A DNA stretch of 64,000 nucleotides from an uncultured Sphingomonas sp. Lineage in GTDB: Bacteria > Pseudomonadota > Alphaproteobacteria > Sphingomonadales > Sphingomonadaceae. Below, one piece after another: positions 3,455 through 61,437 of this stretch. The position numbers were made by a program, and so were the translations under genes. Location of the stretch: positions 22,954 through 86,953 of the forward strand of contig CBIHNZ010000017.1 of assembly GCA_966211615.1 (NCBI GenBank). Direction: 5' to 3'. Each line of letters starts with the position of its first letter. Positions within the stretch are counted from its first letter, which is position 1. The notes under the pieces are model-generated. The model saw only the letters and a program-made list of their open reading frames with translations, was not told the DNA's origin and ran no database searches.

Positions 3455-3859
3455 ATGAAGTCCATGTCTGACTTGCGTACCCTGGACGTGGAATTGCTGG
3501 CGACGATCGCCGCGCTCGAGGCGCTGAACGCGCAGCCCGATTTCGACCTGAAAATCCTGTCGAACGTGCGTTACCGCATCTCGCGCGCGATCGTGGCGCG
3601 GCGCAAGCTCGTCGATGCTCTGCTTCAGGACGTCATCGCCGGCGGCGGCGAGAAGGCCGAGATCGCCCGTGCCGAGCTCGATCGGAGCATGGTGGTGCGG
3701 GCCCAGTATACGGCGCATGTCAGCGCCTGGGCGCCGGCGGCGGTGGCGCGGGACTGGCCGGGCTATTGCGAGGCCTGCGCCAGCTTGCGCAAGGCGATAC
3801 GCGCCAAGATCGCCGCGCAGAAGCCGATCCTCTATCCCTGGCTTGCGCTGGCCCCCTAG
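3455..3859 (+). CDS. Hypothetical all-helical protein, degenerate hemerythrin-like
   Basis: Fills the gap between the lyase and guaB; C-terminal W..DWPGY...I..Q..ILYP pattern recalls sphingomonad hemerythrin-like proteins. Confidence 0.6.
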   Translation: MKSMSDLRTLDVELLATIAALEALNAQPDFDLKILSNVRYRISRAIVARRKLVDALLQDVIAGGGEKAEIARAELDRSMVVRAQYTAHVSAWAPAAVARDWPGYCEACASLRKAIRAKIAAQKPILYPWLALAP

Positions 3860-56901: not shown

Positions 56902-58092
56902 ATGACCAGACCCTTCAAGACGCTCGACGACATGGGCGAGATCGCCGGCAAGCGCGTGCTCGTCCGCGAGGACCTGAACGTGCCGATGGCGGACGGCGCG
57001 GTGACCGACGACACGCGGCTGCGCGCTGCGGTGCAGACGGTCGCCGAGCTTGCCGACCGCGGCGCCAAGGTGATCGTGCTCGCGCATTTCGGGCGTCCCA
57101 AGGGCGTGCGCAATCCGGAGATGAGCCTGGCGCTGGTCACCAAGCCGTTCGAGCAGGTGCTCGGCCGTCCGGTGCGCTTCATCGACGACCAGCAGGCCGG
57201 CGACGTCATCCACAAGATGGCGGATGGCGAGATCGGCATCCTCGAGAATACCCGCTTCGATCCGGGCGAGGAGAAGAACGCGCCCGAGACGGTCGAGCGG
57301 CTCGCCGCACTGGGCGATTTCTATGTCAACGACGCCTTCTCCGCCGCGCACCGCGCCCACGCCTCGACCGAGGGGCTGGCGCACAAGCTGCCGGCGTATG
57401 CGGGGCGGCAGATGGAAGCCGAGCTCGACGCGCTCGACAAGGCGCTGGGCAATCCCGAGCATCCGGTCGCTGCCGTTGTCGGCGGCGCCAAGGTTTCGAC
57501 CAAGCTCGACGTGCTCAAGCACCTCGTCGCCCAGGTCGATCACCTGATCATCGGCGGCGGCATGGCCAACACCTTCCTCGCGGCGCGCGGCGTCGATGTC
57601 GGCAAGAGCCTGTGCGAGCATGACCTGACCGGCACCGCCGAGGAGATCATGGACGCGGCCGACAAGGCGCGTTGCATCGTCCACCTGCCGTACGACGTGG
57701 TGGTGGCGAAGGAGTTCAAGCCGAACCCGGCGACGCGCACCGTCAATGTCCATGAAGTCGCGGCCGACGAGATGATCCTCGACATCGGCCCGGCGGCGAC
57801 CGAGGCGCTGGCCGATGTGCTCAAGAACTGCCGCACCCTGGTGTGGAACGGGCCGCTCGGCGCGTTCGAGACGCCACCGTTCGACACTGCAACGGTCGCG
57901 CTGGCCAAGACCGCCGCGGCGCTGACCAAGGAAGGCTCGCTGGTTTCGGTCGCGGGGGGCGGGGACACCGTTGCCGCGCTCAACCAGGCTGGCGTAGCGG
58001 ACGATTTCAGCTTCGTCTCGACCGCGGGCGGCGCCTTCCTGGAATGGATGGAAGGCAAGGAACTGCCCGGCGTGGCCGCGCTCGCGCGCTGA
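56902..58092 (+). CDS. pgk: Phosphoglycerate kinase
   Basis: [57 protein letters not shown]. Confidence 0.98.
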
Positions 58093-58101
58093 TAAAGAGC
58101 T

Positions 58102-58599
58102 CTACTTCGGCAGGCGCTCGTTCAGGAGCGGCACCAACTCCTGATTCAGCGCTTCGAGCGTGAGGGCGCCTGCCTTGGCGTAGCGGACCGTGCCGGCGCG
58201 ATCGATGATGTAGTTGGTCGGCACCGCGTCGCCGATGGGGGTGTACGGGCCCTTGATCCTTCGTGCCGGATCGATCGCGAGCGCGGCGAAGAGGGATTTC
58301 ATCCGGAAGGCCGGCACCGAATCCTCGGTAGCCACCGCGAACACGCGCAGCCCGCTCGGCTTCTGGATCCGGTAATAGGTGTCGAGCAACGGCAGCTCGG
58401 TGCGGCAGGGCACGCACCAGGTGGCCCAGAAATTGAGCACGACCACCTGCCCGTGAAGATCCGCGAGGTTGATCTTCGTGCCGTCGATCAACACGATCTG
58501 GGCAGGAGGCGCCGGCGCGCCGACGACCGGACGCTTGTCGGGCATCGCGCCGCCGCCGAGCGTCAAGGCGAACAGCAGACAGGCAAGCTGCCTTCCCAT
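58102..58599 (-). CDS. TlpA-family thiol-disulfide oxidoreductase
   Basis: Signal-like N-terminus, LNFWATWCVPC, VPTNYIIDR.G. Start approximate. Confidence 0.88.
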   Translation of the reverse strand: MGRQLACLLFALTLGGGAMPDKRPVVGAPAPPAQIVLIDGTKINLADLHGQVVVLNFWATWCVPCRTELPLLDTYYRIQKPSGLRVFAVATEDSVPAFRMKSLFAALAIDPARRIKGPYTPIGDAVPTNYIIDRAGTVRYAKAGALTLEALNQELVPLLNERLPK

Positions 58600-58668
58600 A
58601 GCGAGGCGTGGCGTCAAAATAGACTGTCCCCCCTTCGGCAAATGCGATCGGCGCACCGAATCGCAGTC

Positions 58669-59847
58669 CTAAGTGCGCCGATCGAATAATGCGAACAAGA
58701 ACAGCAATATGCCACCGATTCCTGCGCCGATCGATGCGGCGAGCGTCCAGCCGCCATATTGATAGGCAGCCGAACCGATCAACGAGCCCGTCGCGCCGAC
58801 GACGAACATGATCGTCAGATAGGCCGCATTGATCCGGCCGCGCGCCTCGCTCGACAGGCCGAAGATGATGCGCTGGCCCGAGATCTGGTTGAGCTGGACC
58901 CCGGCATCGATGAGCACCGCGGTGACCGTGAAGGCGATCACGCTGCCGAGCGCCACCACCCAGTCCGCGGCGAGGAAGGACAAGGTCACCAGCGCCAGCG
59001 CGAAGAAGGTCGTGGCGCGCGCCTTGCCCTTATCGGCGAGCTGGCCCGCGATCGGCGCTGCGAGCGCGCCGCCGGCACCGGCCAGCGCGAACAGCCCGAC
59101 CTCGCCGTGGCTGAAATGGAAGCGATGGATCAGTGCCAGGGGCGCCGCGGTCCAGAACAGGTTGAATGCGGCGAACAGCAGCGACTGATAGGCGGCGCGC
59201 AGGCGGAGCGCCCGGTGCGTGCGGACCATCTCGAACATCGAGGCGAGGATCGCGCCATAGCCGAGCCGCGTCTCCGGCCGGCGCTCGGGAAGCCAGGAAG
59301 CGAGCGCCAGGCCGATCGCGGTCATCAGACCGGCGGAAAGGAAGAATACCGCGCGCCAGCCGGCGACCTCCGCGACGAAGCTCGCGATCGGCCGGGCGAG
59401 CATGATGCCGGTGAGCAGCCCGCTCATCACCAGCCCGATCGTACGGCCCTGGCGCGCATGCGACGAGAGATGCGCGGCGAGCGGCACGAGGATCTGCGCG
59501 CCGACCGAGCAGATTCCCATCACCAGTGACGCGGCGAGGAACAGCGGTGCGTTCTGCGAAAGCGCCACGCTGATGCAGCCGACCACCGTGCCGGCGGTGG
59601 CGATCAGCGTCAGCCGGCGGTTCTCGAACAGATCGGACAAAGGCACGATCAGGGCCAGGCCGAGGCCATAGCCGAGCTGGGTGAGGGTGACGATCGCGCC
59701 GGCCGCCCAGGCGCTCATCCCGATCTCGGGGGCGATCGTGTCGATCAGCGTCTGGGCGTAATAGATGTTGGCGACCATCATCCCGCAGCCCACCGCCATC
59801 AGCAGGGTGAGGGCGGGGGTGATGTCGTGGCTGTCGGGATGGCTCAT
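58669..59847 (-). CDS. MFS transporter (YnfM/YgaY-like)
   Basis: ANIYYAQ, TQLGYGLGL...PLSDLFENRRL, GLLTGIMLAR, RGRINAAY. Confidence 0.9.
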   Translation of the reverse strand: MSHPDSHDITPALTLLMAVGCGMMVANIYYAQTLIDTIAPEIGMSAWAAGAIVTLTQLGYGLGLALIVPLSDLFENRRLTLIATAGTVVGCISVALSQNAPLFLAASLVMGICSVGAQILVPLAAHLSSHARQGRTIGLVMSGLLTGIMLARPIASFVAEVAGWRAVFFLSAGLMTAIGLALASWLPERRPETRLGYGAILASMFEMVRTHRALRLRAAYQSLLFAAFNLFWTAAPLALIHRFHFSHGEVGLFALAGAGGALAAPIAGQLADKGKARATTFFALALVTLSFLAADWVVALGSVIAFTVTAVLIDAGVQLNQISGQRIIFGLSSEARGRINAAYLTIMFVVGATGSLIGSAAYQYGGWTLAASIGAGIGGILLFLFALFDRRT

Positions 59848-59921
59848 GACCCGCCCAGAGCCCGGCACCTCCGTTCCACGCAAGCGCTATCTTAGTATTA
59901 GTCGGTTGCGGGTTGCGCAAT

Positions 59922-60821
59922 TTACCGCGGGCGTTCGGCGGCAGCGGCCGGCTGACGCTCGAGCCGGTAGCGGAGGCGGTAGAGGTCCATGCCGCCCGAG
60001 CCCGGACGCTGCGCCGAGAAGGTCAGCCGGCCGGGTGCCGACCAGTCGAGCATCGGGCCGTAACTGTCCTTGTCGCCATTGGCGCCCCGCGGCAGCCGCG
60101 TGCCGGCCGGGTAGTGCGTGCGCTGGGGCGCGGCGGCGAACAAGTCGATCCGGTCCTTGCGGAGATCCGGTGCGCGCGAGAAGACGATCGTGCGGCTGTC
60201 GGCGAGGAAGGTGGCGTCGAACTCGTCGGCTTCGCTGTTGATCGCGCCGGGCAGGCCGATCGCCGGGGCGAAGCCGGTCCCGCGGCGCCGGGCGACATAG
60301 AGGTCCTGCCGCCCCGCGCCACCCGGCCTGTCGCTCGAGAAGAGCAGCTGCTTTCCGTCGGGTGCCAGCATCGGTGCCCATTCGTTCGCCGCACTGTTGA
60401 CGCTTGCGCCGAGCGGCTCGGGCACGCCGAAGCTCGTCGCGGTCACGGCGACCCGGTAGACATCGTCGCCGCCCAGGCCGCCGGGGCGGTCGGAACTGAA
60501 ATAGACATGCCGCCCATCCGCGGAGAAGGCGGGATCGAAATCGCGGCCGGGGCTGTTGAAGGGAACCGGCATCGGTTCGCCCCATCCGCCGCGCGCACGA
60601 CGGGACATCCAGATGTCATAGCCTCCCGCACCGCCCGGCCGGTCGCGGCTGAACCAGAGCGCGGTGCGTCCGTCCGGACTGATCGTCAGCCGGACCTCGG
60701 AGAAGCGCGTGGAGGCGATCCCCGGAGCAAATGGTTCCGGAACGCCGAGGATGGTCACGGGGTCGCCGATGGCGAGGAGCGGTGCGCCCGCGTATAGCGC
60801 GAGGCGGGCAATCTGGATCAT
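59922..60821 (-). CDS. TolB-like PD40-repeat beta-propeller protein
   Basis: Repeats DFDPAFSADG..VYFSSDRPGG.GG.D, EWAPMLAPDG..LLFSSDRPGG.G..D, EFDATF. Confidence 0.85.
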   Translation of the reverse strand: MIQIARLALYAGAPLLAIGDPVTILGVPEPFAPGIASTRFSEVRLTISPDGRTALWFSRDRPGGAGGYDIWMSRRARGGWGEPMPVPFNSPGRDFDPAFSADGRHVYFSSDRPGGLGGDDVYRVAVTATSFGVPEPLGASVNSAANEWAPMLAPDGKQLLFSSDRPGGAGRQDLYVARRRGTGFAPAIGLPGAINSEADEFDATFLADSRTIVFSRAPDLRKDRIDLFAAAPQRTHYPAGTRLPRGANGDKDSYGPMLDWSAPGRLTFSAQRPGSGGMDLYRLRYRLERQPAAAAERPR

Positions 60822-61099
60822 CGGTCTCTCCCTTTGCAGGACGAGATGGAATCCGGACGACGCCTTAACCAGTGGGCAGTTGACGGTGGAGGCCAAGCCA
60901 GATTTGCGCTCGGCGATCCGAGGACCGCAGCGCGGATTCCCAAAACGGCACTCGCGCGACAGAAACAAATCGGAAAATATTCGACATTGTCGATATTTGG
61001 ACTTGTGCCTGTGCCAGCGGGCATGGGATAACGTTGAAGACGATTTGGGGGGAAGAATCGGTCGGTTTTGTAGGCGTGGCGTTTAGCCATCGCATGCGG

Positions 61100-61298
61100 G
61101 TCTTGTGACCCTGCCGTGCGCGCATCTCCGATCCTTGCTTCTGCGCAAATCTTCCTGGCTTGCCATGGTTCGGCAGGGTCCAGGAAATGGGATTCGGCCA
61201 GGCGCGAAGCGATGGCCAGACGGGATACTCCCGGGACGCTGGTCCGGAACTCCAGCGGCCCAAGAGCGGGAGGGTGGAGAAATCCACCCTCCTTTTTT
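61100..61298 (+). ncRNA. Candidate structured small RNA
   Basis: Five stems, a possible pseudoknot and a terminator; no plus-strand stop codon between 61109 and the terminator, so no ORF ends there. 5' end unknown. Confidence 0.55.
61269..61298 (+). terminator. Intrinsic terminator
   Basis: GGAGGGTGGA-GAAA-TCCACCCTCC-TTTTTT. Confidence 0.92.
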
Positions 61299-61437
61299 GT
61301 GCGCACGGCTCGGCGATATTCGCACCTCGTTTCGGCGCGCGGCCGGGTTTCTTCGGGCTGGTCAGCGTTGTCAGCGGTTTCTCGGTTGAAAATGCTGGGT
61401 TAGAGCGCCTGCCAGCGTCACGAATCAGGGAAGCAAC

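Follow-up and report, generated by a model that had tools for sequence, protein, structure and literature searches.

In the window, the 64,000-nucleotide stretch of DNA from an uncultured Sphingomonas sp. that we analysed, an orphan intrinsic terminator and a conserved hairpin upstream of the aldolase gene fbaB most likely constitute, to judge from the sequence, the 3'-terminal part of a small non-coding RNA. We regard it as somewhat better than an even bet that this RNA is independently transcribed and terminator-ended, with a length of ~110-260 nt, a fixed 3' module, a fast-evolving 5' part and a probable dependence on Hfq. A sequence-only reading of the same DNA had proposed a novel structured RNA with a pseudoknot, acting either as a stand-alone small RNA or as a leader of the genes downstream. 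The stand-alone RNA has become the best-supported reading, thanks to the orphan terminator, the conserved 3' module, the conserved upstream block and the promoter-like elements of fbaB itself, while the structured pseudoknot has fallen away.

An orphan terminator between variable cargo and fbaB

The locus and its neighbourhood comprise the following features, numbered from the first letter of the window.

56902-58074: pgk
up to 60824, minus strand: PD40 beta-propeller gene, ending here on the 5' side and forming the left neighbour of the unit in the window
60934-61035, plus strand: conserved upstream block, which may serve the small RNA as a promoter or regulatory region
~60970-60999: A/T-rich stretch within the upstream block
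61003-61008, plus strand: -35-like TTGTGC
61025-61032, plus strand: -10-like GGGATAAC
61041-61060, plus strand: 5' hairpin CGAUU/AAUCG, immediately 3' of the inferred transcription start
61067-61223, plus strand: variable central domain, with helices A and B and the GGCCA/TGGCC hairpin (61196-61217)
61152-61186, plus strand: local nested hairpin, UUCCUGG-CUUGCC-AUGGUUC-GGCAGG-GUC-CAGGAA, which takes up helix B together with the 3' arm of helix A
61224-61232, plus strand: C/U-rich stretch GAUACUCCC, mostly unpaired and invariant from U61226 onward
61228-61266, plus strand: hairpin SL-A, CUC / GGG / CGCUGG - loop UCCGGAACU - CCAGCG / CCC / GAG (RNAalifold consensus)
61268-61298, plus strand: intrinsic terminator with a 10-11-bp stem GGGAGGGUGGA/UCCACCCUCCU capped by GAAA, followed by U6 here and by U7 in the relatives
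61353-61437, plus strand: putative promoter, operator and 5' UTR of fbaB, conserved in four genomes
61361-61376: direct repeat GTCAGCG-TT-GTCAGCG, invariant in four genomes
61399-61406: -10-like GGTTAGAG, conserved in four genomes
5' of fbaB: ribosome-binding site AGGGAA
61438-62352, plus strand: fbaB, class I fructose-bisphosphate aldolase
3' of fbaB, plus strand: genes for an ABM-domain protein and an O-methyltransferase (OMT), and thiE

The left neighbour of the unit differs in the three relatives that carry it.

Sphingomonas sp. JC676: catalase, plus strand
Sphingomonas sp. dw_22: pgk, plus strand, with no other cargo in the gap
Sphingomonas MAG: TlpA-like thioredoxin, minus strand, the sole cargo of the gap

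The terminator is real: a terminator scan returned GGGAGGGTGGA-GAAA-TCCACCCTCCT followed by TTTTT (61268-61293 onward), in agreement with the GAAA-loop stem and T6 run noted earlier. The further observations that no plus-strand gene ends within 61100-61298 and that the upstream PD40 gene lies on the minus strand were likewise borne out. In both the window genome and the MAG the upstream genes are divergent, leaving the terminator without an open reading frame to terminate. What counts against a small RNA is that dw_22 and JC676 have a co-directional gene just upstream (pgk and catalase, respectively), which the terminator could serve.

The order pgk then fbaB is ancestral in Sphingomonadales, with a gap between the two that ranges from 59 nt up to several kb. 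This gap, a minor hotspot for the gain and loss of genes, carries cargo that differs from genome to genome; in the window (56902-61437) it holds tlpA-like, MFS and PD40 genes, every one of them on the minus strand. Several other Sphingomonas loci (L035-L042) have instead a co-directional gene directly 5' of fbaB ending in ...RIVKVIGHASATRMEQVDQALRRWL, which we take, from its sequence, to look like the C-terminus of a MazF/PemK-type toxin.

The unit was found in only four related species

BLAST against 401 genomes of the genus recovered three relatives of the unit, in the cultured isolates Sphingomonas sp. JC676 (the closest) and Sphingomonas sp. dw_22 and in one Sphingomonas MAG, and an exact scan with the 21-mer CGCTGGTCCGGAACTCCAGCG across 185,579 species, represented by one genome each, returned the identical three. 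A metagenome scan added only three chance matches, all inside coding DNA. When a covariance model built on the 3' module (R1) was run over the 401 genomes, the four true copies scored 105-112 bits and the next-best match 41 bits, the inspected matches being ordinary gene-end terminators. Three of the weak matches, from other Sphingomonas (L058, L060 and L061, at ~position 1500), have a separate conserved unit in common, composed of a GGGAUGUAAUCC hairpin, a GUCCGG...CCGGAC hairpin, a GGGGAGGUCGG terminator and a UUUUCUUUU tail, which could be another small RNA or a conserved 3' UTR.

The unit occurs once in its genome and no plasmid or phage match to it was found, on which grounds an origin as a repeat or mobile element was rejected. 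The regions upstream of fbaB in 23 other Sphingomonadales show neither homology to the unit nor a terminator at that position, and a general fbaB leader was rejected for this reason. In other Sphingomonas ~80-190 nt separate a divergent tlpA-like gene from fbaB, again with no terminator and no homology; since the unit is missing between these two genes, the ~300-nt unit was therefore gained in the four-species subclade. The four genomes share homology from a sharp boundary at ~60934 onward, whichever gene lies on the left.

The 3' module is constrained in sequence as well as in pairing

The conserved core is a 75-nt 3' module (61224-61298) made of GAUACUCCC, the hairpin SL-A with its loop UCCGGAACU, and the terminator. 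To gauge its conservation we used the fourfold-degenerate columns of fbaB as a baseline (100 of 151 invariant in the four genomes, 66%). In the four-genome alignment, invariant columns number 71 of 78 in the 3' module, compared with 58/96 in the upstream block (60940-61035), 11/164 in the variable domain (61067-61223), 23/55 in the spacer (61299-61352) and 60/85 in the fbaB promoter and UTR (61353-61437). Among the segments on which it was compared with the baseline, only the 3' module exceeds it (binomial P = 3e-7); the flanks on either side are at or under the fourfold-degenerate level, and conservation stops exactly at the T-run.

Within the module the invariance extends beyond the stems. 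The G+C-rich terminator stem and its GAAA loop are invariant in the four genomes, as is the 9-nt SL-A loop (61243-61251), and UACUCCC is identical in all four. The invariant unpaired parts thus comprise the 9-nt loop, GAAA, UACUCCC and AAGAGC, and because these nucleotides are fixed too, the module is constrained on its sequence as well as on its pairing. Of the three small hairpins that the sequence-only reading had placed beside the terminator, CGCTGG/CCAGCG (61237-61257), the core of SL-A, is kept in all four genomes, whereas the other two are not. The collection of homologues that it had called for yielded the three relatives but only minimal covariation, limited with four sequences to a single SL-A pair: the MAG carries one compensatory change from G-C to A-U. 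In the MAG the A61236/G61258 mismatch of SL-A is also replaced by an A-U pair. Coding function is excluded by the single-base indels present within the module and by the plus-strand reading frames across 61160-61298, all three of which are open with none closing before the terminator; the MAG version of the unit also has no start codon.

SL-A folds with z = -2.45 on the plus strand and -3.62 on the minus strand. As a separate observation, the same segment (61228-61266) reaches -23.2 kcal/mol on the minus strand and -18.1 kcal/mol on the plus strand, a difference of ~5 kcal/mol that arises because two C/A mismatches turn into G-U pairs. The minus strand has neither a terminator nor a conserved gene for it to serve, and no minus-strand transcription unit accounts for the stability.

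This symmetry feeds one of the two main alternatives, that the unit has no RNA function beyond termination and is an insulator or terminator remnant in the pgk-fbaB gap accompanied by DNA palindromes, with CGCTGG-N9-CCAGCG as an operator. The SL-A inverted repeat would fit a DNA palindrome equally well, since it folds on the minus strand at least as well as on the plus strand; the stems of a needed terminator would be expected to stay invariant at such divergence; and, in keeping with the ancestral pgk-fbaB synteny, pgk of dw_22 has no terminator of its own and reads straight into the region. Against this, the unit has been parted from pgk in three of the four genomes and is still 94-97% identical, the invariant unpaired positions and both loops are more than a mere terminator requires, and the conserved upstream block would be left with no other obvious role. 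An operator shared with other genes finds no echo either, as a whole-genome search for the conserved upstream motifs gave no second copy of any of them that would suggest a regulon. We consider a purely terminating element improbable, at roughly one chance in five.

Promoter-like elements flank the unit on both sides

A small RNA ending at this terminator would need a promoter of its own, and the upstream block could be that promoter, with transcription starting at ~61038-61045. In the four genomes the pattern CTTGTGCC..TGCC.....GCATGGGATA is nearly invariant, and the block contains the -35/-10-like arrangement TTGTGC-N18-GATAAC. A scan for promoters of the E. coli type, the consensus that it used, detected none at the locus. 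Sigma-54 and EcfG (GGAAC-N16-17-CGTT) readings of the block were discarded after inspection by eye, neither of them fitting all four genomes. The 5' hairpin that follows reads CGAUU/AAUCG both here and in JC676, and CGAU/AUCG in dw_22, while the MAG carries another short hairpin at its 5' end.

On the other side of the terminator, fbaB appears to have its own control elements. The position of GGTTAGAG matches that of GCTAACAG in other Sphingomonas that are without the unit, at an equal distance from the fbaB start, and we take this motif to resemble the alphaproteobacterial -10 consensus GCTANAWC known from Caulobacter promoters. The likeness argues that fbaB has a promoter of its own, 3' of the terminator, and the direct repeat together with GGTTAGAG (61361-61406) probably serves fbaB as operator and -10 element.

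These elements bear directly on the second main alternative, in which the unit is a cis-acting leader or attenuator of fbaB and either a protein bound to SL-A or an alternative pairing allows read-through past the terminator. Such a role would suit the position of the unit, which in each of the four genomes precedes fbaB by ~145 nt (144-147 nt from terminator to start), and the invariant SL-A loop could bind a protein. An alternative pairing does exist: CUCCC (61228-61232) can form 5 bp with GGGAG (61268-61272), is kept in all four genomes and would take 5 bp from the terminator. However, this antiterminator form falls short of the terminator fold by ~8 kcal/mol in stability; between the terminator and fbaB come the direct repeat and the conserved -10-like element, the latter placed as in species without the unit; the 54 nt directly 3' of the terminator are poorly conserved; and the unit is absent from the 23 other Sphingomonadales fbaB loci. 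Nor is there a conserved sensor domain 5' of the terminator, as the whole sequence from the 5' hairpin up to 61224 either varies or has been lost; the MAG, which has lost the 5' domain, retains ~75 nt in total before the terminator and hence no conserved aptamer. The attenuator or riboswitch for fbaB-ABM-OMT-thiE that the sequence-only reading had entertained is for the same reasons unlikely, there being no conserved structure of aptamer size. Taken together, the promoter-like elements of fbaB, the weak antiterminator and the missing sensor domain lead us to prefer a small RNA gene in its own right to an attenuator of fbaB, to which we assign a low probability similar to that of a terminator remnant.

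The 5' and central parts are free to vary and contain no maintained pseudoknot

All of the strings on which the pseudoknot had been built are present in the window. Helix A pairs GACCCTGCCG (61107-61116) with CGGCAGGGTC (61171-61180) and helix B pairs TTCCTG (61152-61157) with CAGGAA (61181-61186), both as perfect complements in this genome, and the smaller stems GGCCA/TGGCC with its CGC-GAA-GCG cap (61196-61217), CGGGA-TAC-TCCCG (61221-61233) and CGCTGG/CCAGCG are also found as described. The 201-nt stretch folds at -94.1 kcal/mol and better than dinucleotide shuffles on both strands (z = -3.4 on plus, -4.3 on minus).

Comparison of the four genomes does not maintain the two helices, which are found in this genome only. 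In JC676, 7 of the 10 pairs of helix A are broken (3/10 kept) and 4 of the 6 pairs of helix B are unpaired, and in dw_22 and the MAG both helices fall into gaps. The segment (61107-61186) is the least conserved part of the unit, 74% identical to JC676 against 85% at the fbaB fourfold-degenerate sites, and has been lost entirely or for the most part from dw_22 and the MAG. Across the variable domain as a whole (61067-61223), identity to the window is 77% for JC676, 42% for dw_22 and 10% for the MAG, whose alignment has 133 gap columns. Nested folds moreover account for every listed pairing, so no pseudoknot is needed: in a fold of 61100-61300, CAGGA nests with UCUUG (61101-61105) and lengthens helix A, whereas in the longer inferred transcript helix A is gone and helix B becomes the outer part of the local hairpin at 61152-61186. 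Folding the 261-nt transcript at minimum energy yields this hairpin, and JC676 has it too, made more stable by an A-to-G change; it is absent from dw_22 and the MAG.

A ribozyme- or riboswitch-like RNA with an H-type pseudoknot core (61107-61116/61171-61180 plus 61152-61157/61181-61186), recommended by two perfect helices and by a segment that folds better than shuffles (z = -3.2), is accordingly very improbable given the loss of both helices in the relatives, a rate of change no slower than that of fourfold-degenerate sites, the nested alternatives and the lack of an Rfam match. The pseudoknot and the "novel structured RNA" built on it are not supported by the sequences and should be dropped: the 5' and central part, pseudoknot segment included, is evolutionarily free and dispensable.

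Comparison with known regulatory RNAs

The earlier impression that the unit matches no known RNA family held up against Rfam 15. At permissive E-values, neither the window nor the compact MAG homologue reached the gathering threshold of any family; the best match was PrrB_RsmZ (20.9 bits against a threshold of 44), and the remainder scored <=21 bits against thresholds of 40-80. Like the unit, PrrB/RsmZ (RF00166), which sequester CsrA/RsmA, combine several hairpins with a terminator, and the loop UCCGGAACU contains GGA. PrrB/RsmZ RNAs, however, carry multiple GGA motifs in loops, and the unit keeps just the one in the SL-A loop, its other GGA-containing hairpins being variable or deleted in the relatives. 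No CsrA (PF02599) was detected in the 99.5%-complete genome, with positive controls, and given this absence and a score far under 44 bits, a CsrA sponge of the RsmZ kind was rejected.

An Hfq gene is present outside the window, as one 195-aa open frame with two tandem PF17209 domains (C24:36035-36466; 105.8 and 89.7 bits). Hfq-dependent small RNAs typically consist of one or more 5' hairpins, a C/U-rich or loop sequence for pairing, and a Rho-independent terminator with a U-tail. The unit resembles those of alphaproteobacteria, such as AbcR1/2 and SuhB of Sphingopyxis granuli TFA, in its predicted length of ~100-260 nt and in being intergenic, non-coding and ended by a U-tailed terminator. It differs from suhB and the alpha-proteobacterial ar families in having no sequence or covariance-model similarity to them and in occurring in four species only. 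Attenuation leaders and riboswitches also offer parallels, namely a structured promoter-proximal region, an intrinsic terminator, a metabolic gene downstream and, in the unit, a weak alternative pairing; yet riboswitches have a ligand-binding domain, of which the unit has no conserved counterpart, and unlike in attenuation leaders 140 nt with a separate promoter-like element lie between its terminator and fbaB.

A model for the small RNA

In the small RNA account, the gene would lie on the plus strand between the variable pgk-fbaB cargo and fbaB, with transcription starting from the conserved block at ~61040 and running as far as the strong intrinsic terminator, which ends at 61298. The predicted RNA would measure ~260 nt here and in JC676, ~220 nt in dw_22 and ~112 nt in the MAG, whose compact version folds into three hairpins (z = -5.4). 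Its functional core would be the 75-nt 3' module, whose layout is typical of Hfq-binding, base-pairing small RNAs: Hfq may bind the terminator and U-tail, while the conserved unpaired nucleotides would pair with mRNA targets in trans, UACUCCC and UCCGGAACU acting as the seed. As a candidate seed, GAUACUCCC offers the anti-Shine-Dalgarno-like CUCCC. Computed duplex energies at 3784 crude translation-start regions equalled those of windows inside genes, an 11-mer complement scan for targets found none, and the neighbouring genes scored at background.

A bolder interpretation, which we offer as a long shot, has two forms. In the first, the four loci would record a recently born regulatory RNA gene whose 112/220/260-nt size series reflects a kept 3' module (seed, protein-binding hairpin and terminator) and a 5' body gained, lost or rewritten within ~20% synonymous divergence. 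In the second, SL-A, with its partly palindromic UCCGGA loop, would be the site at which an RNA-binding antiterminator ties the unit to fbaB.

The main practical outcome of this work is negative, in that the pseudoknot reading is dropped, and with a narrow reach (four species) and no predicted target or phenotype, the unit is of use chiefly for annotation and as a modest case study in evolution. Riboregulators of the Sphingomonadales have received little study. A 2025 preprint describes SuhB as the only characterised small RNA in Sphingopyxis granuli TFA (bioRxiv 10.64898/2025.12.09.693200). If transcribed, the unit would constitute a new small RNA family in Sphingomonas with no Rfam entry, and its four versions would provide a clean case of modular small RNA evolution, in which a fixed 3' module is joined to a free 5' part.
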